This document shows positions 7,446 through 51,003 of a stretch of DNA of 64,000 bases, in pieces (positions within the stretch are counted from its first letter, which is position 1; every line of letters begins with the position of its first letter). The notes under the pieces were generated by a model. The model did no database searches. It was not told the DNA's origin and saw nothing but the letters and a program-made list of their open reading frames with translations. The stretch comes from Legionella sp. (GTDB lineage: Bacteria > Pseudomonadota > Gammaproteobacteria > Legionellales > Legionellaceae): contig JBAZRP010000002.1 in the NCBI GenBank assembly GCA_041662885.1, positions 14,118 to 78,117 on the forward strand, in the 5' to 3' direction. The position numbers were made by a program, and so were the translations under genes.

Positions 7446-9329
7446 TTAAAGATACACAACATACTGCAACTCATAATCATCAACCCACTGCCAACCACCC
7501 AAGGTACTAATAGAAAACGAGATCACCCTTTTAGAACTCAAAGATGTTTCATGAAACAAAAGCGCAAAGTCTTGCGTATTTTCGACCAAGGGCGACAGTA
7601 AAAATTTGGAGCGCGCCATACTGGGAATTAATTTATAGCTTGTCTTTGTTCCATTGCTTAATTCAAGGTTAATAGCTAATGTTGCAGGGGCAAGAAGTAT
7701 ACTTGCGATCGTGCCAAAGACGTTTGGTGTAATATCCATGCTCACAAACACTAAGGAATTGTTTACTGGTAATTGGACTATTTCGCCTAATACGTGATGC
7801 TCTTTTATCAATTTTTTCTGACGTACCCTTGCAGAATTATTTTTTTGCAGCAATAAAAATTGATCGTAGATTTTAGCAATATGATAATGATTTAATAAAA
7901 TCGGCCAACTGGCACCATCTTCTAAACTGGGAAATCTATTATCAATTGCCTGTAGATTAAAAAAAATCGAATCAGGACCTTGTTTGGTTTCTAGATGGCG
8001 TCTATTTGCTTGAGCAAATGCTGCTGTAAATACCGAATAACTTTGAAATATCGGACGGGGAGACCATGCATTTCCTGATGCAATTAAATGAGTTTGATTT
8101 GCAGAGTAAATATCCGTTGTTCCTGGGAGCAAAGGTATATTCGCTTGATTTTTTAAATAACCTAAAGCCAATTGGTAATCGCGTTGCATCCAAAGGGGGT
8201 CTTTAAACCAATGAGTCATGCCATGCCAAAAAGAAGAGTAATTGGCAGGCGCATTTACTAAAAATGAAATACTGTTTTGCGATTCAATAAAATACGAAGT
8301 ACCTAAGGTATAAATCATCAAGGGTAGTATCAAGCGTGACTTGATACAAAATGGCAGTATAAGCGCTGCAAAAAGTAATGAAGTTGCAGCAATAACCGCA
8401 TGACCATAATGTCGAGTAAAACCGGATTTGAAAGAAATAAATAAAAATACAGCATAAAGAATCAGAAAGGCATACCGTAATAAGCTATTGGGCACAGTCA
8501 TTTTTCGACATTGTGCAAGACTTAGTGATTGCAAAGAGGAATGGCCAACGCCCCCAACTACCAATAAAAGCAACAAGGAATTAAACCCATATAAAGCCAT
8601 CTCCAGATAACTAAAATCATCCGACATTGCCTGCGAAAATGAAGCAGCCATAGTTATAGTAACGCTCAAATAACTAGGTAGATCAATCAAAGATTGGCCG
8701 CAGGCCAACCAAAAGATACAAGTCGAAATGAGGACGAAAGTCCAGGATAAAAATGCCGCAAAATATTTTTTATCAGCGATAAAAAACAGGCTGCAAATGA
8801 GCATGGTACTAAAACATTCAATCAAAAAAGTACCCTTGATTAATGCTAACAATCCAAAAGGTGCAAAAAATAATACCAATCGCAGATAGTTTTTATTAGT
8901 AAAGGATTCATCAAAAACTATTTTACAACTAGCTAATCCTGCAATAAGAGCATAAGAAAAAAATAAAGAATCACTAGAACAGACCATGGCAACAAGAACC
9001 AGGATATAGCCCAGACCCCATATCCAACTGACATTCTTTAGTAAATATCTAAGACAAAACCAATAACTGCAGGCAAGATACAAACTCCCTGCTAACATCA
9101 TTAATTCAGTGGCGGGGTGATAGCATTTAGTATAAATAGCAGCATATGGACCCAAAGTGAAAATAATATCTCTACCAAAGGCCAAACCCTGAGCTACAGC
9201 TTGATTAAGTCCAAAGGCCCAAGAACCATCCAGGCTGGTTGTTGGTAGCTTGGGGGATACGGGAACAAAGGCTACTAGTGCACTGATAAATAGTGCCAGC
9301 TTAATAAAAGGTATCTGTTTCGGTTGCAC
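7446..9329 (-). CDS. Large polytopic inner-membrane protein with C-terminal soluble domain; function unknown (possibly GT-C-like glycosyltransferase/polymerase)
   Basis: 627-aa ORF. About 370 N-terminal residues hold many predicted TM helices, followed by a ~250-aa hydrophilic domain. The N-terminal 'LDGSWAFGLNQAVAQGLAFGRDIIFTLGPYA' loop resembles uncharacterised membrane proteins from polysaccharide loci, from memory only. Confidence 0.7.
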   Translation of the reverse strand: MQPKQIPFIKLALFISALVAFVPVSPKLPTTSLDGSWAFGLNQAVAQGLAFGRDIIFTLGPYAAIYTKCYHPATELMMLAGSLYLACSYWFCLRYLLKNVSWIWGLGYILVLVAMVCSSDSLFFSYALIAGLASCKIVFDESFTNKNYLRLVLFFAPFGLLALIKGTFLIECFSTMLICSLFFIADKKYFAAFLSWTFVLISTCIFWLACGQSLIDLPSYLSVTITMAASFSQAMSDDFSYLEMALYGFNSLLLLLVVGGVGHSSLQSLSLAQCRKMTVPNSLLRYAFLILYAVFLFISFKSGFTRHYGHAVIAATSLLFAALILPFCIKSRLILPLMIYTLGTSYFIESQNSISFLVNAPANYSSFWHGMTHWFKDPLWMQRDYQLALGYLKNQANIPLLPGTTDIYSANQTHLIASGNAWSPRPIFQSYSVFTAAFAQANRRHLETKQGPDSIFFNLQAIDNRFPSLEDGASWPILLNHYHIAKIYDQFLLLQKNNSARVRQKKLIKEHHVLGEIVQLPVNNSLVFVSMDITPNVFGTIASILLAPATLAINLELSNGTKTSYKLIPSMARSKFLLSPLVENTQDFALLFHETSLSSKRVISFSISTLGGWQWVDDYELQYVVYL

Positions 9330-14522: not shown

Positions 14523-16361
14523 CTACATGTCACTAGCTGGCTTAGGAACAGGACCCACTTCATTTACCTCTGTAAGATTATCAAAGAAGCTATTTTTGGC
14601 AGCTGCTGGTTTTTTATCTAGCATAGTTGGGGTGATGAGTACCTGTTGATATTCAGCTTCAGGAAAATCAGGGTTCATTTTTTTAGTTTTATAAAGATCT
14701 TCTATCATCCTATTGGTAGCAATGGCTATAACTAAAGCCATGCCGATTATAGGTAATCCAATACCAAAAGGTAAAAATACCAAACTAACTAAAATAAGCG
14801 CCGGCATTACCGCTTGCATTATTACTTTTCGGTAGAAATGCATGGTTTGATAAACCACTTTTTGTTCTTGAAAATGTGTTTCTGCTTGCGCTTGCTTAAT
14901 TTCCAGGAATAAAAAGCGCAATTTGGTGTCCTCTTCGGGATGTTCTCTCAACAGATCCTGGAATGCTTTAATTTTAATAGAATAATTTCTTTCGGAGTCT
15001 TTAACGAAGTCTTTGGTTTTACTTATTTCAAGGCCAGCAGTCACGGCATTATAAATAACAGAAAAGACGAAACATAATATGGCACCGGTAATGCTGACGG
15101 CTAAAATAGCCGGTCCGGTATAAGGTAAGAGAGGTAAAATTAATAAGGCAAAGGCTATTAATAACCCTAGTGCATAGGCAGAATCATTTTTTAAAGTAAG
15201 TACTTTATAATGCCACTCTTTATCTAATTGGTTTTTAGCTTGTTGTAAATCGTATATTTGTAACCTGTATTCTTTAATTCGTAGCGATTTCAACTCTTCT
15301 GCTAAATCTGGGTTGTGGTACATCACGTCGATTATTTTAGCTTCTAAAATGCGAATTTGTTTTTTATAGTGTTCTGTTTGCGCATTATATTCAGTCTGCT
15401 GTTCTCTAAACGACCAAAGTGAGGCACCCAAATCAAAACATAATAAACCAAGAGTCAATACATCGCCCCAGGGACCTAAACCAGTTTTAGCAGTGAGCCA
15501 GAAGAAACAAGCCAAGTTGCAGGTAGCCCATAAAGAATCGTTAAGAAGGGCAAATTTTCGCAAGTCCCATTGGGTCCAAAAGCGTTTTCTCCAGGGAATT
15601 TTCCTTTCTTCAGCCGACATCCAAGGACCGGCAACAGTATGTTTTAAAAATAAATTTAAATGGACTGCAAATCGAAAATAATACAAAGACCAACTTAAAA
15701 TTCCGGTGTAGGGATCGGGGGTATGCAATAAATTGGAAGTTTTATTTACATTAAAAAAATCAGGCGGCAAGACATCTAAAATAGTTTTAATAAAACTAGA
15801 ACCCCATACCCAATAAAGTCGTCTTTCATTGATCCAGTTCATTTTGTCAATGAGCTCGCCGGATTGTTTGTCCAATTCGGAGGTTTTGCCGCCTATCCAA
15901 TCCACCATTTTTTGCGCTACTTCTTTTCCCACACCTAAACCCAGGTATTTCATGATTTGTTCTGGGGATAAATTTTTTTGTGCTGCAGATTGACTGGCTT
16001 TTTTCGGATCTAATAGGTCTAAAAACCGTATGCATTGGTTGATTTTTTTATAATATTTGTTTTGTTTTCTTGAGTCTTTCATCTCAAATTCGTGCTTCTT
16101 TTGAACCAGCAAGAGTAAGTAGGTAATTTGCAGATGACGTCTTAGTTTGTTTTTATCTTCTTCAGACATGTATTTGATTAGAAAGGCATTTGTATTCTTT
16201 AAAATATCCAAATAGTAGCTCAATGGAGTGAAAAACCCACCATTGTTTACTAATTGCTCTTGTAAAGGAGCTATGAAGTCCTCTTCCAGTGACTTTGTGC
16301 TGGGTTTGGGACCGGAAATTTCCTCTATAAAATGTGCAATTATTTTGCTATCTACTGCCAT
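14523..16361 (-). CDS. Hypothetical membrane/coiled-coil protein (orphan; effector-like)
   Basis: 612-aa ORF with three paired-helix hydrophobic blocks (e.g. 'YALGLLIAFALLILPLLPYTGPAILAVSITGAILCFVFSVIY') separated by coiled-coil-like stretches. No family recognised. Confidence 0.75.
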   Translation of the reverse strand: MAVDSKIIAHFIEEISGPKPSTKSLEEDFIAPLQEQLVNNGGFFTPLSYYLDILKNTNAFLIKYMSEEDKNKLRRHLQITYLLLLVQKKHEFEMKDSRKQNKYYKKINQCIRFLDLLDPKKASQSAAQKNLSPEQIMKYLGLGVGKEVAQKMVDWIGGKTSELDKQSGELIDKMNWINERRLYWVWGSSFIKTILDVLPPDFFNVNKTSNLLHTPDPYTGILSWSLYYFRFAVHLNLFLKHTVAGPWMSAEERKIPWRKRFWTQWDLRKFALLNDSLWATCNLACFFWLTAKTGLGPWGDVLTLGLLCFDLGASLWSFREQQTEYNAQTEHYKKQIRILEAKIIDVMYHNPDLAEELKSLRIKEYRLQIYDLQQAKNQLDKEWHYKVLTLKNDSAYALGLLIAFALLILPLLPYTGPAILAVSITGAILCFVFSVIYNAVTAGLEISKTKDFVKDSERNYSIKIKAFQDLLREHPEEDTKLRFLFLEIKQAQAETHFQEQKVVYQTMHFYRKVIMQAVMPALILVSLVFLPFGIGLPIIGMALVIAIATNRMIEDLYKTKKMNPDFPEAEYQQVLITPTMLDKKPAAAKNSFFDNLTEVNEVGPVPKPASDM

Positions 16362-21757: not shown

Positions 21758-22379
21758 ACTCAAACGCAATGAAATTTTTAGACGATTGCGCGAGTTAAAT
21801 CCACACCCTACTACTGAATTACATTATTCCTCCCCATTTGAATTATTAATCGCTGTAATACTTTCTGCTCAAGCAACTGATGTCAGCGTTAATAAAGTCA
21901 CAGACAAATTATTCCCGGTAGCAAATACACCGCAAGCAATTTTAGATTTGGGTTTAGAAGAGTTTAAAAAATATATCAAATCGATAGGCTTATATAATAC
22001 CAAGGCGGAAAATATTTTTAAAACCTGCGCTTTACTTTTAGAGTGTCATCAAGGTACAGTGCCAAATAATAGAGAAGCTTTAGAAACTTTACCCGGTGTA
22101 GGACGTAAAACCGCTAATGTAGTTCTTAATACCGCTTTTGGTCAGGCAACTATGGCAGTGGATACGCATATTTTTCGAGTGGCTAATCGTACTGGTATAG
22201 CACGGGGTAAAACGCCTTTAGAGGTGGAACATAAATTAGTAAAAAATATCGATCCAGAATTTTTAAAAGATGCACATCATTGGTTAATTTTGCATGGACG
22301 TTATATTTGCACCGCACGTAAACCGCATTGTGAATCCTGTCCGATAAATGATTTATGTGATTTTTGGAGCGCTAAATGA
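21750..22379 (+). CDS. nth: Endonuclease III
   Basis: 209 aa with the HhH-GPD motif '[13 protein letters not shown]' and the C-terminal [4Fe-4S] loop 'C…[10 protein letters not shown]'. Confidence 0.96.
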
Positions 22380-24115
22380 AATGGATATCATCTCTAGGTA
22401 AAAATTTCTCAACCTTCAGCGATAATGTAACTTGGATATGGAATAAAGCTTCGCTCACTCAAGCAACTATTAGTCTGGCAACATATTCAGCTAATACTTT
22501 TTTTGAAATGGTCGATCAAGTTAGGGCTTTACGTCAAGCAGTTCCAGTCTTGTTTACCAAAGAGCACTCTAAGAAAATTGCTAATTCCATGGTCTATATA
22601 ACCATTCAAGATGTTTTATTTCCGGTATTAGCAGTACATTTTATAAATAATGGCGTGCAAAACTTTTATCGCAGACAAGAAGATCCTGAGTCGTCTTGGC
22701 ATGTCCCATATACTGCAGGTTTATGTGTATTAACTATTGTTGATTATAGTGTAAAAGCTTATACCTACAGGCAGGCAGTACAATCACTTATTAGAATCAC
22801 GGTATTGGATGCGGCTGCTCCATCAGCATTTAATGCAGATAGAACCAATCCACCTTTGCATGCATGTTCTAAAGAATGTAATTTAAAACGTAGAATTACA
22901 GGAGTATTTAGAGAGCCTATCATCCTGTTAACTAATGATGCTTTGGTTTATATGACAAGACAATTCCCTTATGGGGGTGAAACTATTTCGGAAGTTGTGC
23001 GTATATTTTTTAATGGTCGTTATATTACTCGTTTGGCAACTCCAGAATTATGTGAGCGGCATAAATTTCAATTAATGATGCAAGAATCAGTCTTAGGCTT
23101 AGGACTAGGTTATTGGTTAACTTCTAAATTGATGGATTATGCTTTAGAACAAACAATAGGTTTGCCGCCCTATATATTCCACCGCACCTTAAAACATGTA
23201 TTATTATTATTTCATGCCAATATGGCAACGCATATGGTTTTACCCTTGGTCGAAGCTAAAGATGCTACTTTGCCTTATGATCCTTTTAATATCTATGAAG
23301 CAGTTTGTCGATTTATAGCGGATGTAGTATTTACTGGACTTAAGATAAGAATTGGAATGGATTTTAAGCCTGAAGAAGGAAAGCCGCCAATTGTTACTTT
23401 ATCTTTTGTATTGCAAACCCTTACAACTATGTTGAATCAGGATTTTACTACTAAGAAATCCTTTTTACCGGTGTTTATGCAAAAATCCTATCAGAAGGCT
23501 AGACCTTATCTTTTGCCGACTATTTTGCAATCAACTGATAACTTTGTTAATGATCCCTTGGTTGGGGTGTATTGGGAAGTAATACAAGATGGCACTGCCG
23601 AATTTGTTGATAGAATTACAGCTATTTGTAAGGATAAAAAAACTCAGATGCTCTCACAAGCACCAAGAGACCAAGTTGTTTTAGCTTTATATTATTTTCT
23701 AGGTTTGCCACAAGGTATTACAAAAATAATATTGATGCTAAGTCGTGATGAGGATTTTTGGGAATTTGTTGAGGCATTAAATAGCTGGCTGCAACGTCAT
23801 CCTGTAAAAGGCCGACTTCAGTTGGCTGCTACTGGTACTGTAGAAAAGCTATTGCAGCAGGATAGACCACATGAGACGGTTGTTGAAAAAATAGAGGATA
23901 GTTCTTCGCATATTGCCGCTCAGGAATTATTACCGATGCCTGCAGTGAGACAACTTATTGATGTTGAGGTAAGTAAGGATGAGGTAAAAAAAGAAGAGAC
24001 AACTTCTGATTCGCTTGCTTTAAATCCACATAGTTTGTTCGGTCAGGATGTACGTAAGCGTCCAACATCAGAAGTCGTATTTACCGTAAACGATCTAAAT
24101 TCTGGTTTTTTTTGA
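22376..24115 (+). CDS. Hypothetical 579-aa protein (orphan; effector-like), translationally coupled to nth
   Basis: Long uninterrupted ORF whose ATG overlaps the nth stop (ATGA at 22376-22379). No family recognised. Confidence 0.75.
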   Translation: MKWISSLGKNFSTFSDNVTWIWNKASLTQATISLATYSANTFFEMVDQVRALRQAVPVLFTKEHSKKIANSMVYITIQDVLFPVLAVHFINNGVQNFYRRQEDPESSWHVPYTAGLCVLTIVDYSVKAYTYRQAVQSLIRITVLDAAAPSAFNADRTNPPLHACSKECNLKRRITGVFREPIILLTNDALVYMTRQFPYGGETISEVVRIFFNGRYITRLATPELCERHKFQLMMQESVLGLGLGYWLTSKLMDYALEQTIGLPPYIFHRTLKHVLLLFHANMATHMVLPLVEAKDATLPYDPFNIYEAVCRFIADVVFTGLKIRIGMDFKPEEGKPPIVTLSFVLQTLTTMLNQDFTTKKSFLPVFMQKSYQKARPYLLPTILQSTDNFVNDPLVGVYWEVIQDGTAEFVDRITAICKDKKTQMLSQAPRDQVVLALYYFLGLPQGITKIILMLSRDEDFWEFVEALNSWLQRHPVKGRLQLAATGTVEKLLQQDRPHETVVEKIEDSSSHIAAQELLPMPAVRQLIDVEVSKDEVKKEETTSDSLALNPHSLFGQDVRKRPTSEVVFTVNDLNSGFF

Positions 24116-36122: not shown

Positions 36123-37187
36123 ATGACCGCGAGTGCCTTAATTCTGACTGATGGTTTACTTGCCGAGATAGCCTGTAAAACGGCTCATGGTTTAATTTTT
36201 GGAAGTAGTCGTTATGCTATTGTTGGTTTAATAGACAGTAAGTATGCGGGCATGGATCCAGGCATGGTTTTTTCTAATCAAAAAACGAATATTGTTATTT
36301 TTGCATCCATTCAAGAGGCCTTAGAACAAATTCCTCAGAAACCTGATTACTGTGTCATTGGTGTTGCGCCTATGGGTGGTAAATTATCAGGCAGCTTAGA
36401 GGCTACTATTCAAGAAGCGATTAAAGCAGGAATTAATATTGTAAGTGGATTACATAATTTGCTATGCGACAACCCAGTTCTTGTAGCTTTAGCAAAAAAA
36501 CATGGTGTGGAGTTAATTGATATTCGTAAACCTAAGCCTTATAAAGAATTATCTACTTGGACGGGTGCAATTAGTTCCATTACGACACCACGAATAGCTG
36601 TGATTGGAACCGATTGCTCGGTCGGCAAACGCACTACTTCTGGTTTATTATTAGATTTGTGCCGCAGCCATAATATTCGAGCAGAAATGATCTATACCGG
36701 ACAAACGGGTTGGTTGCAAAATATGAATTATGGTTTTATTTTAGATGCTACTTTGAATGATTTTGTAGCTGGCGAATTTGAAAAGGCTATTTTAAAGTGT
36801 GATGAAGAAGCAAAACCCGACTTAATGATTTTAGAGGGTCAGTCCGGACTTAGAAATCCAGCAGGTCCTTGCGGTGCGGAATATTTGTGCTCAGCTGGAG
36901 CGCGTTATGTAATTTTACAACACGCGCCCAGCAGAACACATTATCTTTTTGATTCCTCCAAGCAGCATAAAATTCCTGACGTACGCGATGAAATTGCCTT
37001 GATTGCTTATTATGGAGCTAAAGTAATAGCCATTACCCTAAATGCTTCTGGTTTGAGTCAAGAAGCGGCACATGCAATCAAAATACAGTTACAGGAGCAA
37101 ACACATCTTCCAGTACTTTATCCTAAAGAAGAAGGACTTGAGGCCTTATTACCTGTAGTAACAGAGATTCTTAATGAACATAGTTGA
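36123..37187 (+). CDS. DUF1611-family protein (DgcN-like; putative D-glutamate N-acetyltransferase family)
   Basis: 354 aa with the P-loop-like 'VIGTDCSVGKRTTS' and 'ILEGQSGL' motifs characteristic of DUF1611. It is paired with an enolase-superfamily epimerase, as is typical for this family. Confidence 0.8.
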   Translation: MTASALILTDGLLAEIACKTAHGLIFGSSRYAIVGLIDSKYAGMDPGMVFSNQKTNIVIFASIQEALEQIPQKPDYCVIGVAPMGGKLSGSLEATIQEAIKAGINIVSGLHNLLCDNPVLVALAKKHGVELIDIRKPKPYKELSTWTGAISSITTPRIAVIGTDCSVGKRTTSGLLLDLCRSHNIRAEMIYTGQTGWLQNMNYGFILDATLNDFVAGEFEKAILKCDEEAKPDLMILEGQSGLRNPAGPCGAEYLCSAGARYVILQHAPSRTHYLFDSSKQHKIPDVRDEIALIAYYGAKVIAITLNASGLSQEAAHAIKIQLQEQTHLPVLYPKEEGLEALLPVVTEILNEHS

Positions 37188-38235
37188 TATAGAAGTAACA
37201 CGCCAACCCTTAAGTTTGCTTAAACCCTATAGAATAGCCAACAAAACTTTTGATAGCGTTACAAACTGTATAGTACGCATAAAATTGGCTAACAATATTG
37301 TGGGTATAGGCGCTGGCGCACCAATTGACTATGTGACTGGTGAAACTTTAGATTCCTGTATGCATGCTTTGGCTCCTGAGCATTTAACCTGGTTGCAAGG
37401 CCAGTCAATCGATACCCTTCCGGCTCTTACCAGACAAATACATGCTCGATTGAAACATAGTCCAGCAGCTGCTGCTGCCTTAGACATTGCCTTATACGAT
37501 GCCTACGGAAAATTATGCAAGCTGCCAATAGTAGACATTTTAGGGCGTGTGCATCATGCCTTGCCAACGTCAATTACTATTGGTATTCAAGAAACGCAGG
37601 CGGCAGTTCTTGAGGCAAAAGATTATGTGGCACGTGGTTTTAAAAACCTTAAAATTAAATTAGGCGAGGATGTGCAGCGGGATATTGAGACAGTTCGCGT
37701 TATTCGCGAACACTTTCCCAAAGAGATTAAAATTCGCGTGGATATGAACGAAGGTTATAGTTTGGAAGACTTGCAAAGTTTTATACACCATACCAATGGA
37801 TTTGATATTGAATTAATTGAACAACCATTTTCTAGAGAAAATTTTCATCTTCTGACTCAATTTCCCAAAGAAGTCCAAAAAAAGATTGCCGCTGATGAAA
37901 GTATGATTTCAATAGCGGATGCGTTCCATCTTGTTTCAGAACAACAGCTGTGTGGAATTTTTAATATTAAATTGATGAAATGCGGTGGTATTACCCCTGC
38001 TTTACAAATTGCACGTCTGGCAAATTTGGGCGGTATTGATTTGATGTGGGGGTGCATGGATGAAAGCATTATCAGTATTACGGCGGCCTTACATGCAGCA
38101 TTTGCTTCCGCTAAAACCAAATACTTAGATTTAGATGGTAGTTTTGATCTTGCCCAAGATATAGTGAGTGGCGGATTTATTCTGGAGAACGGTTGTTTGC
38201 GACCCACAAATTTGCCCGGACTGGGTGTTGCCTAA
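37174..38235 (+). CDS. Enolase-superfamily dipeptide / N-acyl-amino-acid epimerase (L-Ala-D/L-Glu epimerase or DgcA-like racemase)
   Basis: 353 aa with KxK 'NLKIKLG', metal ligands 'RVDMNEGY', 'IEQP' and 'AADES', and a second catalytic Lys in 'NIKLMKCGG'. It overlaps the upstream gene by 14 nt. Confidence 0.85.
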   Translation: MNIVDIEVTRQPLSLLKPYRIANKTFDSVTNCIVRIKLANNIVGIGAGAPIDYVTGETLDSCMHALAPEHLTWLQGQSIDTLPALTRQIHARLKHSPAAAAALDIALYDAYGKLCKLPIVDILGRVHHALPTSITIGIQETQAAVLEAKDYVARGFKNLKIKLGEDVQRDIETVRVIREHFPKEIKIRVDMNEGYSLEDLQSFIHHTNGFDIELIEQPFSRENFHLLTQFPKEVQKKIAADESMISIADAFHLVSEQQLCGIFNIKLMKCGGITPALQIARLANLGGIDLMWGCMDESIISITAALHAAFASAKTKYLDLDGSFDLAQDIVSGGFILENGCLRPTNLPGLGVA

Positions 38236-38300: not shown

Positions 38301-41300
38301 ATGCAAATTTTTACACAAGAGAAACTTAAAATGCCCAATATTCTTTTTTCCTCGATTAACTCTACTACTTATGATTTTGCAGTTAATTTTGATCGTGTGG
38401 TACAGGCTATGAAATTAGCTCAAGAAAAAGCACAAGAAGAGGAAATCAGATTACATGTGTTCTCTGCCTTTCCGCTCACGGGTCCCACAGCGCAAGCTTA
38501 TAATGCCTTTTTAAATACCCCACAAGATGAAAAAGAAATTATTGACTTGATCAAAAAGATTGCAGAAGAGGGCTCTGTTAAAGATTCCAACCTGACTACT
38601 ATGATTTCATTTCCTTGGTATCATCGTGATCCAACTGTATCTGTTGACCATCCTTTTTATTATGATGTTACCAACAAAATGAATAACCGCCCTTTTTACG
38701 CCACAGCCGTTATTCACAAAGGTAAGATTACGGGTATTAATTTGGAATCGAACTTAGGCTATGCTGAAGGTGGCCCATATGATGCTCGTTATTTTGCCAA
38801 ATGGCCATTAAATACAACTGAAATGCTTAGGTTAGGTGAAGATGAGATTTTAGTAGGGACCTTGGATGTAAATCCTGGACTGGTAAATTGCCCCGGTTTT
38901 TACCATCAAGAAGATATTCAAGCTTTAAGCCAAACAACTGAATATAAAGACAGCATCTTGATTATTGGTAATCCTTTAGGATCTGATTCTGGAGATAAAA
39001 TTGGTTCCGGGGAAGTTTTTGTTTACAAAAACGGTGTGAAAATATACGTCACTCCCAGCGAATATGCATATTCATTTGCGCCGTCTACAACTCAAGTAGT
39101 TGAATTGAGCACAGCACACTATTCTAATTATACTCCAAACCGCGCAACTGATCTTATTAAAGCATCTTCTTTATGGATGCGCGATTACGTGCTAAAAACC
39201 AAGCAGCAAGGTTTTGTGATATCTATGTCTGATAGCATTAATTCAGTTTATACCTTGATGATTGCTAATAAGGCTATTGATTCAAGCATTGCTGCTTGTA
39301 ATGGTTTAGAAGGATTTTTTGAAGCTAAAAACTTTGGTCATTTAGCATGTAAAAAAGAGGTGTTGCTGTGCCTGAAAACAAAGGGTACAAAAGAGGCTAT
39401 TAAGTTACTAAAAGGAAAAATGTTGACTTGTGTCTATATGCCTTATTCAGCTAAAGAGTCAAAGCTAGAACAAGCTCAGATACAAAACTTAGTTGATGCG
39501 GTCGGCGGAACCTTGCAAATTTCAGAAATAGGTAAAGTTTTGACCTCTAATTTTGAGGCTTTGAAAAGCGGTATCGCAACTTCGGATAATCAAAAAGCGC
39601 TGTATCTATTAGAGAATAATGAAGATGTAGTGCAAGCAGCTTTAGAGCGTGCGCAGACTACTGAAGCAGGTATCGTTGGTAATATGGATAATAAGATCTG
39701 TGTTTCTAATACCAGCGCTAACTCAGTTGCTTATGGACGTTTGCATGCAGGTGGTGCCGGTCAAGAAGGGCCTATTTCAGTTACCTTATCCTTGTTTCAA
39801 ACGCAAATTATAGAAAATTTGCAGCAACTCGCATTAGAAGCACCAACCAACGTTGCAGAAACAATCAATGCGTTAATTAACCATAAATTAGAAAAATACC
39901 AAGTAAAAGATTTTCAAAAAGAAGAATTAATTATTCAGCAGATGATTATTAATAAGTCTTCACCTGCAGAAACTTTTGAGCATCTAAAGGCAAAGCATTT
40001 GCAATTATGGGGCGATGCAAATGAATTACTGCAACAAGTTGATGAGGCATGCCGTCTTTGGTCTATTGCACAACCCAGCCGTGTAGCTTTATCCATTGCT
40101 CCGAATTTTGGTTCTTACGGTGCAAGTTTGGACAGATACCGCTCGGTTCGAAACACGCGTGATAATGAATATTTCAATAATGGCCGTGTGGAATTAAGAT
40201 TGCAGTTTCTAGGTAATACAGATGCGGAATTAGCAATGTTAGTGAACTCTAATCCTACATTGAGAGCTTATGTTCTGAATACAGATTTTGCGAATTTGAA
40301 TCTTATTTATATCCAAGAACAGAGTAAGCCTACCCAAGTGCACGTTCGTGAAGTTCAGGAAAAAGCACAGGATGAAAGTAAAAAAACCTTTGCCTTTAAT
40401 GTGAGTGTGGCAAGTTTGCATCAAACCATGTTTGATTATGCAAGAAATACTTCCAATATCAGGCAGGCAATTCAAGAGGCAGAAACTCAGGGACAGGATT
40501 TATTACTACTTCCAGAACTAAGTTTAACCGGTTATTTTGGTGATGGTGACTTTGATTGGATTAAAAACAAAGTAGAGGGCGATAAAATAATGCAACAAGC
40601 ATTAAATATTGCCAAATTTGCCGCTGGTTCTCAGCTAATTATTTCTATGGGGCTGCCGGTATTTATTGAAGGATACAACAAGCCATTTGTGGGTCAGGCT
40701 TTAATGCATCAAGGAAAAATAATCTCTATTTCTTTGAAAACCATGCAACCCGACGGTGAGGCTGAATATGAGGCGATGCATTTCACAGCCTATGATGTGA
40801 AGACTATGGGTCAGGTCATGAAAATTCAAATTCCAGGCCAAGATGAACCAGTCCCAGTGGGTAAGCCAGTAGTAGTTGTTAAAGACAAACACGGCAATGC
40901 AGTGCCAATTTATCAAGAACAATGCGCTGAAGCGTGGCCAGGTGTTAACAACGATGATTCAGTAAATAAAAACATACAAAAAGAACAACGTTACTTAAAT
41001 AAAATAGCTAAAAATCATCCTGGACTATTAGTTTTAAATCCAAGTGGCAGTAAAAATGAAGTGGTTTTCCCAAAGACGAAGATTCGTCAAAGTCTTGCGC
41101 GTTTAGCTTTGGAACAAAATTCTAATATTGCTGGATATGTTTATGCCAACGTTGCTGGTGATGATAATGGTACTGTCGGCGCTGATTCGGATGTATTTAT
41201 TGCAGGTAGAAATGAAGATGGTACATTGAATTTCCATCATGGCATGCGCCATTCTTTAGCCGAACATACTAGCACTTCTATGGTACTGTCTATTCCAAAA

Positions 41301-50700: not shown

Positions 50701-50907
50701 ACGCTCAAAAACACTGGTAATGCGATTACCCATTTCATCAGGTGGTAAACCAGTATAAGACCAAACGATACTGACAACAGGGATATTAATATCAGGGAAA
50801 ATATCAGTTGGGGTGCGAGAAATAGTCAAAGGCCCAATGATGAGTAGCATTAAAGCTAACACAATAAATGTATAAGGTCGCGAAAGGGCAAGCGCTACAA
50901 TCCACAT
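47731..50907 (-). CDS. RND-superfamily efflux permease (AcrB/HAE family)
   Basis: About 1058 aa with 12 TM helices and two large periplasmic loops. The track starts at a GTG (50922). Homologues begin 'MWIV…RPYTF', so the ATG at 50907 is preferred. Confidence 0.93.
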   Translation of the reverse strand: MWIVALALSRPYTFIVLALMLLIIGPLTISRTPTDIFPDINIPVVSIVWSYTGLPPDEMGNRITSVFERAVTTTVNDIEHIESESLLGVSVTKLFFHSGTDIALALSQVTAVAQTMLRNLPPGTLPPLVLSYKASTVPILQLVLSSTTIPEQELNDWANNFMRSQLATVQGASIPYPYGGKTRQIQVDLNPKAMQTYGVSAQQINDALDAQNLIIPAGTEKIGLYEYIVKLNSSPLTIEELNYLPVKSTPGRILYMRDVAHVRDGFAPQTNIVRVDGKRAVMMSIEKSGNASTLSIISRIKELLPKVQEMLPEAISLTKFADQSLFVTAAIRGVIVEGIIAAALTGLMILLFLGSLRSTFIITLSIPLSIIASITILSALGETINIMTLGGLALAVGILVDDATVAIENINWNLEQGKEVEQAILDGAKQIAIPALVSTLCICIVFVPMFFLGGVAQYLFVPLAEAVIFAMLTSYLLSRTLVPTLAKYLLHKHDPFEKQIQTAKGLMRIHGLFEEKFAALRDFYLRHLTTALKHAKIFILCFLSFVLSSIFLLWPWLGDDFFPNVDAGQIKLHIRAPTGTRVEETARLVDTIDTTIRRIIPATELDSIVDNIGLPVSGINLSYSNSATVGPEDADILISLKENHKPSARYVHTIRAELTNQFPEISLAFLPADIVNQIINFGLPSPINIQVIGLNKKANTHYAHQLIKRLKKVSGLTDIRTRQASNYPELFVDVDRSLAQELGFTQLDIASDMLIALSGSFQTRPTFWLDPKNHVSYPIVTQAPQYVMTSLNDLNNLTIGTQSTPKQAQILGAFSKIRRTMTDVVESHYNVQPAIDIFASIQDRDLGSIAKDIQKIIDDTKKDVPKASTVAVRGQIETQQYAFSGLYWGLAFSILLVYLLIVINFQSWTDPFIIICALPGALAGIAWMLFITHTTLSVPALTGAIMCMGVATANSILIISFAKDHLLENHDPFLATIEAGKARIRPVIMTALAMIIGMLPMSLGLGDGGEQNAPLGRAVIGGLSFATMATLFFVPVVFYTIHDWKLKAKERKNNAQKP

Positions 50908-51003
50908 AACAATCCATGTCACTTACTAAAGGAACTAGTATACTAAAAAAAGCCATAAGTTAGAACCGCATTGAATCCCCTATTTCCATAGGAAGAAGCT
51001 GAA

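Follow-up and report, generated by a model that had tools for sequence, protein, structure and literature searches.

NAD+ (nicotinamide adenine dinucleotide) synthetase, NadE, is an essential enzyme and a drug target in Mycobacterium tuberculosis (Mtb), and its homo-oligomers are a textbook case of active sites coupled through an ammonia tunnel. The glutamine-dependent enzymes, NadE(Gln) (EC 6.3.5.1), consist of a nitrilase-type glutaminase domain followed by a PP-loop synthetase domain, in chains of ~540-700 amino acids (aa). Those closest to the protein described here are the 620-690-aa enzymes of Cytophagales, Verrucomicrobia and Deltaproteobacteria, especially that of Cytophaga hutchinsonii (PDB 3ILV). 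In human NadE the ammonia tunnel runs within a subunit and in Mtb NadE between subunits, with active sites coupled across protomers (PMC6946656), and allosteric coupling and PII regulation are known for NadE(Gln) enzymes (PMC7196632, PMC6946656). A survey of the NADS family makes no mention of duplication or tandem forms (PMC3376133). Within 64,000 nucleotides of Legionella sp. DNA (contig JBAZRP010000002.1, positions 14,118 to 78,117; the window), the gene at 38301..43115 (+ strand) encodes a 1604-aa chain that contains two modules of the NadE(Gln) type, the first of which has lost its catalytic residues. Literature searches on NadE combined with Legionella, tandem or pseudoenzyme returned nothing on such an architecture. 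This tandem live/dead arrangement has not been described before for an NAD+ synthetase, and represents an architectural variant of a well-known enzyme family.

The two modules are collinear, and each is composed of a CN-hydrolase (glutaminase) domain followed by an ATP-pyrophosphatase (synthetase) domain. An internal tandem duplication of the whole NadE(Gln) module had been proposed in an earlier note on this DNA, and is borne out by two comparisons, which place the repeat well outside the range of chance. BLASTP of residues 1-690 against 691-1604 gives three ordered, collinear high-scoring segment pairs (E 1e-14 with 37% identity, 3e-9 and 2e-4), and hhalign matches an alignment of N-modules to one of C-modules and NadE with a probability of 100% (E 1.9e-59, 626 aligned columns, N-module residues 13-691). 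The same note expected four domain matches from standard hidden Markov models (HMMs), an expectation on which the N-terminal half fails. CN_hydrolase and NAD_synthase are clearly visible in the C-terminal half only (Pfam, NCBIfam), and the N-terminal half gives a weak PRK13981 match alone (E 2.8e-7, aa 17-328 to profile positions 10-311), so that profile and fold methods are needed. The profile built from the N-module matches hundreds of 600-700-aa NadE proteins end to end, and no family other than NadE was found for the N-module in Pfam, NCBIfam, the profile search or Foldseek.

Structure predictions, made with AlphaFold2 for each half separately and from shallow alignments (9 sequences for the N-module, 28 for the C-module), lead to the same arrangement. 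The N-module model (pLDDT 75, pTM 0.77) has a complete two-domain NadE fold, and its best PDB match in Foldseek is 3ILV (E 7.5e-24, target-normalized TM-score [TMt] 0.72 over 616 columns), followed among full-length matches by the human, Acinetobacter, Burkholderia and Mtb glutamine-dependent NAD+ synthetases. The C-module model (pLDDT 80, pTM 0.81) superposes on 3ILV (E 1.8e-33, TMt 0.85) and on human NadE (6OFB, TMt 0.73), and reaches only ~0.37 with the Mtb NadE chains, which indicates a different relative orientation of the domains. The modules are joined by a linker (40332..40385, + strand, aa ~678-695) of variable length and poor conservation (alignment columns ~790-855), with low pLDDT at aa 679-690. 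Since this linker has no Met nearby, internal initiation cannot give rise to a separate C-module.

The open reading frame (ORF) runs uninterrupted over 1604 codons plus stop, and its product has the same sequence as IMG protein P0159. NCBI entry MFA6301630.1 ("MAG: hypothetical protein WC627_00660 [Legionella sp.]", from an 85-kb contig; MAG, metagenome-assembled genome) is identical except for a start ten codons downstream. The start calls thus differ between IMG (ATG 38301, 1604 aa) and NCBI (ATG 38331, 1594 aa), and because the homologues align from the second Met, ATG 38331 may well be the true start. A scan for promoters and terminators gave counts not above those of shuffled sequence, and is uninformative. 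Tandem proteins are currently annotated as "hypothetical protein" or as "NH3-dependent NAD+ synthetase/predicted amidohydrolase."

On the evidence of the sequences, an artefact, in which two adjacent nadE paralogues were mis-assembled or mis-called as a fusion, or a region was collapsed or duplicated, is so improbable that it can be set aside. A homologous locus (L002) does show the gene as two overlapping ORFs, but the frame there is shifted by a run of masked N, and a natural two-gene split of that locus was rejected on this account. The window ORF has no such interruption, no DNA-level direct repeat longer than 24 nt was found within the gene, and single ORFs of 1415-1776 aa are present in at least ten independent assemblies (NCBI, JGI, ENA, Logan). 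Nine homologues in this size range, from independent assemblies, share the two-module architecture over their full length at 41-93% identity. A collapsed repeat is impossible, as the halves are merely ~25-37% identical at the protein level. Duplication or assembly error as the source of the repeat, which the earlier note had allowed for, was rejected because the gene holds no DNA repeat and the same ORF recurs across independent assemblies.

The state of the catalytic residues was read from a table of 58 aligned modules, to which 15 tandem proteins contribute both their N- and C-modules, alongside 15 long relatives with a single module and 13 canonical NadE. The glutaminase domain of the C-module (40386..41333, + strand, aa ~696-1011; delimited by PF00795, the 3ILV alignment, the residue table and AlphaFold2/Foldseek) has an intact set of Glu739 (40515-40517), Lys813 (40737-40739), Glu824 (40770-40772) and Cys875 (40923-40925). 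Its synthetase domain, an N-type ATP pyrophosphatase (41418..42890, + strand, aa ~1040-1530; PF02540, TIGR00552, residue table, AlphaFold2/Foldseek), contains the intact PP-loop SLSGGADS (41511..41534, + strand, aa 1071-1078) and all of the NadE motifs, namely QNLQPRLR, TSNLSEAAVGYSTWAGD, K1373, PSAELRP, QTDEADLMPY and QFKR. E739, K813, E824 and C875 are kept in every C-module and single-module relative and in nearly every canonical NadE. The PP-loop (S1071-x-S-G-G-x-D-S1078) shows the same conservation, as do the synthetase residues Q1318, R1323, R1325, N1345, S1347, E1348, G1352, Y1353, D1359, K1373, E1408, D1422, E1423, K1488 and R1489. The motif classes shared by C-modules, single-module proteins and canonical NadE are therefore E-K-E-C, SGGxDS, QxxxxRxR, NxSE, GY, GD, K, AEL, DE and KR, and the retention of nitrilase-type residues, PP-loop and synthetase motifs that had been claimed for this module holds in the wider alignment, every catalytic and substrate motif of NadE(Gln) being present.

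Profile scores are in line with this assignment. The C-module reaches 24 bits with PF00795 (cut-off 23.2), 79 bits with PF02540 and 71.4 bits with TIGR00552 nadE (cut-off 63.65), and its PDB sequence matches are Gln-NadE only, with 3ILV the best (E 1.7e-37). The motifs, TIGR00552, the nearest NadE relatives, the fusion of one relative to an NAD kinase and the core-gene context of some family members make it a putative NAD+ synthetase, and by sequence it is a divergent, long NadE subtype. The modules of the window protein are ~200 aa longer than those of NadE(Gln) through insertions. The C-module synthetase domain carries one of ~130 aa (aa ~1175-1305), which is typical of the long subtype, and the protein ends in a tail (42891..43112, + strand, aa 1531-1604) that is not conserved and has low pLDDT over its last 20 residues; it is missing in P0005-P0008 and different in P0002 and P0009.

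These same departures from canonical NadE bear on a different reading of the C-module, as an ATP-dependent amidotransferase that acts on a substrate other than nicotinic acid adenine dinucleotide (NaAD), such as nicotinic acid mononucleotide (NaMN) or another carboxylate, and is not a strict NAD+ synthetase. We consider this improbable. The whole-protein scores fall far short of the NCBIfam NadE equivalog cut-offs (PRK13981 117 vs 479 bits, PRK02628 99 vs 473), the synthetase insertion is accompanied by a C-terminal extension of ~45 aa relative to canonical NadE, and peptide-modifying genes (DUF1611, an enolase-superfamily epimerase and a tubulin-tyrosine-ligase [TTL]-type ATP-grasp) adjoin in the window, all of which would suit another substrate; however, these neighbours are not conserved in other lineages, the NadE-specific motifs are all invariant in the C-module, its nearest relatives are annotated NAD(+) synthases and 3ILV, and a relative is fused to an NAD kinase.

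By contrast with the C-module, the N-module has lost the catalytic residues and the PP-loop, as the earlier note had also read. In its pseudo-glutaminase domain (38337..39110, + strand, aa ~13-270; CN-hydrolase-like fold, from alignments, AlphaFold2, Foldseek to 3ILV and hhalign) the position of the catalytic Glu is Ala56 (38466-38468) and that of the catalytic Lys is Glu149 (38745-38747). The segment of the nucleophilic Cys is deleted in the window protein, and other members of its family (group 1) carry ASNxTQ there. A further ~20-35 residues of the pseudo-glutaminase domain (at aa ~186-196, nt ~38856-38890; alignment columns 201-240) are deleted in the window protein and in P0001, the relative closest to it. 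This deletion takes out the whole segment aligned with the Cys-containing strand and does not occur in the other group-1 members. The pseudo-synthetase domain (39141..40331, + strand, aa ~281-677; alignments, AlphaFold2, Foldseek, hhalign) includes a degenerate PP-loop, SMSDSINS (39222..39245, + strand, aa 308-315; residue table). The group-1 consensus of this loop is S-M-S/T-D/E-G/S-x-N/R/H-S in place of SGGxDS, so that an acidic residue stands in for the first Gly, and Asn, Arg or His for the Asp. The NadE motifs SE, GD, K, AEL and QTDE are lost as well. For E739 and for both PP-loops, the peptides and coordinates quoted in the note agree with those given here.

The roles of the nitrilase triad and of the PP-loop of ATP pyrophosphatases are well established. 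With the Glu/Lys/Cys triad, the PP-loop and the Mg, ATP and NaAD motifs all missing, the N-module is predicted to be unable to catalyse either half-reaction. Judged by these residues, it is a homologue of NadE and not an enzyme of the NadE family.

Loss of catalysis has not been followed by decay. In a comparison with the orthologue from the syntenic locus L009, which is 93% identical, the ratio of nonsynonymous to synonymous substitution rates (dN/dS, Nei-Gojobori) is 0.167 for the N-module (0.20 in the CN-hydrolase-like part, 0.135 in the synthetase-like part), compared with 0.12 for the C-module and 0.01-0.19 for four neighbouring genes. Of the ungapped columns in an alignment of ten family members, 114 of 585 are invariant in the N-module and 221 of 692 in the C-module, with mean pairwise identities of 48% and 59%, respectively. 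The pairwise identities of the two modules correlate closely (r = 0.97), and the topology of the N-module tree mirrors that of the C-module tree. The N-module also has invariant motifs of its own, SFPW, NRPFYATA, GSDSGD, LWxRDYxLK, GGxGQEGPxSxTL and DRYxxVRxxRxxYFxNGRxEL, the last three of which belong to the pseudo-synthetase domain. The N-module is thus under purifying selection and co-evolves with the C-module, and the word "decayed," which the earlier note had applied to it, is misleading in view of its dN/dS, its 114 invariant positions and its complete two-domain fold. Of that note's overall interpretation, the duplication and the pairing of a live with a dead module stand, and the decay gives way to a conserved pseudoenzyme module: the N-module combines a homologous fold, the loss of catalytic residues and purifying selection, the features by which pseudoenzymes are recognized.

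The architecture is rare. When 1.84 billion representative proteins were searched exhaustively with an HMM of the N-module, only three (P0003, P0008 and P0009) proved to be strong representatives of the window family, and next come five other very long proteins of 1429-1932 aa (P0010, P0016, P0019, P0021 and P0025). Further down the ranking are long single-module proteins, and below these ordinary NadE of 600-700 aa, in the hundreds. Tandem proteins thus amount to ~8 clusters at 50% identity, which agrees with the description of a covalent active/pseudo-enzyme pair as unusual. When one genome for each GTDB species was scanned for the pattern, the group-1 architecture turned up in two MAGs only (one Legionellaceae, one Gammaproteobacteria), so that cultured Legionella do not in general have it.

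Among single-module proteins, those most closely related to both window modules are 862-923 aa long (L004, L005, P0011, P0014, P0017, P0160-P0171) and come from MAGs of Rickettsiales or other Alphaproteobacteria type; the C-module shares ~31% identity with them. The next tier is formed by NAD(+) synthases that resemble 3ILV, from Cytophagales, Verrucomicrobia and Deltaproteobacteria. The long single-module proteins share TGY..DD..W, HEQCAEAW, the synthetase insertion and the C-terminal extension with the window modules, but have one module with all catalytic residues intact, and some are fused to an NAD kinase or to a ~300-aa N-terminal region. From these shared features, the window modules are assigned to a rare subtype of NadE, "long" at ~870-920 aa, which is also found as single-module proteins. 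Among the fused relatives, P0013 (1133 aa) has the NAD kinase at its C-terminus, and P0012, P0015, P0026, P0161, P0166, P0168 and P0169 (1137-1186 aa) carry an N-terminal extension of ~280-315 aa; the extensions of P0012, P0015 and P0026, the three that were scanned, have no Pfam match. P0166 comes from a Rickettsiales MAG.

The second tandem group (P0010; P0016, which is MBP9726078.1 from a Gammaproteobacteria MAG; P0019; P0021; P0025) has the same layout of a dead N-module and a live C-module, and likewise shows CN_hydrolase and NAD_synthase in Pfam in the C-terminal half only, with a weak match in the N-terminal half. Its N-modules retain the Glu and Lys, but Gly stands in place of Cys, the PP-loop reads ASGG(N/L)S, and the SE and GD motifs are missing. 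In a neighbour-joining tree of modules (593 columns, 100 bootstraps), the split between the group-2 N-modules, the group-2 C-modules and a second set of single-module proteins on one side and all other modules on the other has 98% support, and the two long-branched groups of N-modules are kept apart. HMM cross-scores follow the same division. Group-1 N-modules, outside their own group, score best against the first (type-1) set of single-module proteins (148-215 bits), and group-2 N-modules against the second (type-2) set and their own C-modules (142-400 bits, with 157-400 bits for best scores against their own sub-clade), compared with 67-118 bits against group-1 N-modules. Indel signatures agree with separate duplications. 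Together these data point to two independent tandem duplications, the second in a different NadE sub-clade, each of which ended in a dead N-module and a live C-module. A single ancient duplication common to both groups was rejected on the tree split, the cross-scores and the indels. Both N-module lineages have also converged on TGP or TSP in place of TGY after the former catalytic Glu (in the window protein TGP at aa 60-62, TGY at aa 743-745). As the same layout has a second, independent origin, it can be argued that the arrangement has been selected.

The explanation that we favour, and regard as probable, is that the protein is a tandem-duplicated and fused long glutamine-dependent NAD+ synthetase related to 3ILV, in which the dead N-module is a built-in pseudo-subunit and not a decaying remnant. 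The C-module would hydrolyse glutamine at Cys875, the NH3 would pass through a tunnel within the module, and ATP-adenylated NaAD would be amidated to NAD+. Because the predicted arrangement of the C-module resembles human NadE and 3ILV, and not Mtb NadE, a tunnel contained entirely in the one live module is plausible. The N-module would replace the second protomer of the ancestral NadE homo-oligomer, giving an obligatory 1:1 live/dead pseudo-heterodimer within one chain, to which it might supply interface, stability or allosteric elements. The large PurL (formylglycinamide ribonucleotide amidotransferase), with its pseudo-symmetric PurM-like halves, offers a parallel for internal duplication in which one copy is kept as a structural or auxiliary half. 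However, its fold and pathway are unrelated, and in the window protein a whole two-domain amidotransferase has been duplicated, not a single domain.

Several points weigh against this explanation. The shortfall in the NadE equivalog scores means that the identity of the substrate is not guaranteed, the tree is neighbour-joining only, and the gene context is not conserved, with three different neighbourhoods. The pseudo-protomer role, moreover, is one that we infer outright.

The conserved residues of the N-module also invite a second reading, in which it is a ligand-sensing or regulatory unit that binds, for example, NAD+, NaAD, ATP or a partner protein like PII, or in which its own invariant residues serve a newly acquired activity. 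A regulatory or substrate-docking role of the dead module had been raised in the earlier note, and is speculative. Candidate residues are at hand in GSDSGD, GGxGQEGP and the Arg-rich DRYxxVRxxRxxYFxNGRxEL, and many of the invariant positions are charged and not shared with the C-module. The purifying selection (omega 0.17), the convergence of both lineages on TGP, and the allosteric coupling and PII regulation of NadE(Gln) enzymes cited above would all be in keeping with a sensor. We nevertheless hold it to be unlikely, though less so than a change of substrate: replacement of the PP-loop Gly by Asp or Glu and loss of the Mg-binding Asp argue against nucleotide binding at the old site, and the N-module matches no known family besides NadE. 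These data are compatible with a scaffold role as well as with a sensor role.

On the favoured explanation, the protein would most likely be a cytoplasmic housekeeping enzyme, a role to which the gene context lends little support because neighbourhoods differ between lineages. In the window and in L009 the DUF1611 and epimerase genes lie upstream and the TTL gene downstream. In P0005 and P0006 the gene stands among core genes (iscS-iscA, the gene, fis, coaX, then mraW-ftsL-ftsI-murE), in P0009 it is part of the ruvCAB cluster among hypothetical genes, and in P0016 it adjoins hypothetical and major facilitator superfamily genes. No conserved operon partners were found across these six loci (window, L009, P0005, P0006, P0009, P0016), and no other NadE was found in the 64-kb window.

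Context and distribution could also be read as those of an effector, translocated by Dot/Icm (type IVB) and directed at host NAD metabolism, with the dead module for host targeting. The protein is large, its distribution, in uncultured Legionellales-like MAGs, is patchy and restricted, its place in the genome is not constant (in one case it is surrounded by hypothetical genes inside ruvCAB), a eukaryote-like TTL gene adjoins it in the window, and single-module relatives occur in Rickettsiales-like MAGs. Even so, we judge this very improbable, as the C-terminal tail, the would-be site of a secretion signal, is not conserved and is absent in P0005-P0008, the P0005 and P0006 copies are embedded in core housekeeping genes, both modules are under the strong purifying selection typical of a metabolic enzyme, and no effector-type domains were found in Pfam and PADLOC scans. 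PADLOC likewise gave no match that would indicate a role in anti-phage defence.

Some details of these neighbourhoods deserve a record. Directly upstream of the window gene (36123-38235, + strand), a DUF1611 protein (354 aa) and an enolase-superfamily protein of the MR_MLE/dipeptide-epimerase-like type (353 aa) are encoded with a 14-nt overlap. The pair is kept in L009 and not found beside other family members, and may, as we assume, resemble DgcN/DgcA-type genes of D-glutamate metabolism. The TTL-family ATP-grasp gene directly downstream (43237-44214, + strand; PF03133, E 4.9e-28), which encodes a eukaryote-like domain, was found besides the window in L009 only, with a dN/dS of 0.19. It is followed by an ordinary-looking efflux operon of the resistance-nodulation-division type (45175-50922, - strand; outer-membrane factor, membrane-fusion protein, 1063-aa transporter). 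Three further ORFs of 579-627 aa (7446-9329, - strand; 14523-16361, - strand; 22376-24115, + strand) have no Pfam match at E ≤ 1e-5 and lie among housekeeping genes (mnmG, metG, a cytochrome oxidase cluster), and may encode lineage-specific or effector-like proteins. At the locus of P0009 (1776 aa; L010/L001 8001-13331 and flanks), the most divergent group-1 member, the gene is interspersed in tolQRAB-ruvB ... ruvA ... ruvC, alongside three genes of ~410-445 aa without a Pfam match.

A natural single chain with one live and one dead protomer is a ready-made asymmetric enzyme, which could reveal what is required of a partner protomer that does not itself catalyse, be it interface, tunnel wall or allosteric signalling. 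That the dead-N/live-C layout originated twice independently suggests that it brings a real selective advantage, and provides a clear bacterial example for the pseudoenzyme literature; in practical terms, standard HMMs miss the N-terminal half of such proteins. A wider proposal, which we put forward tentatively and hold to be possible rather than probable, is that uncultured, probably host-associated Gammaproteobacteria have evolved the covalent live/dead NadE pair independently on at least two occasions, and that its dead module is an allosteric or regulatory pseudo-subunit that gates NAD+ synthesis, for example by sensing NAD+/NaAD or nitrogen status or by contributing to the live module's ammonia tunnel or interface. 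If true, gating by a regulatory pseudo-subunit would give a universally essential enzyme a principle of regulation that is new.

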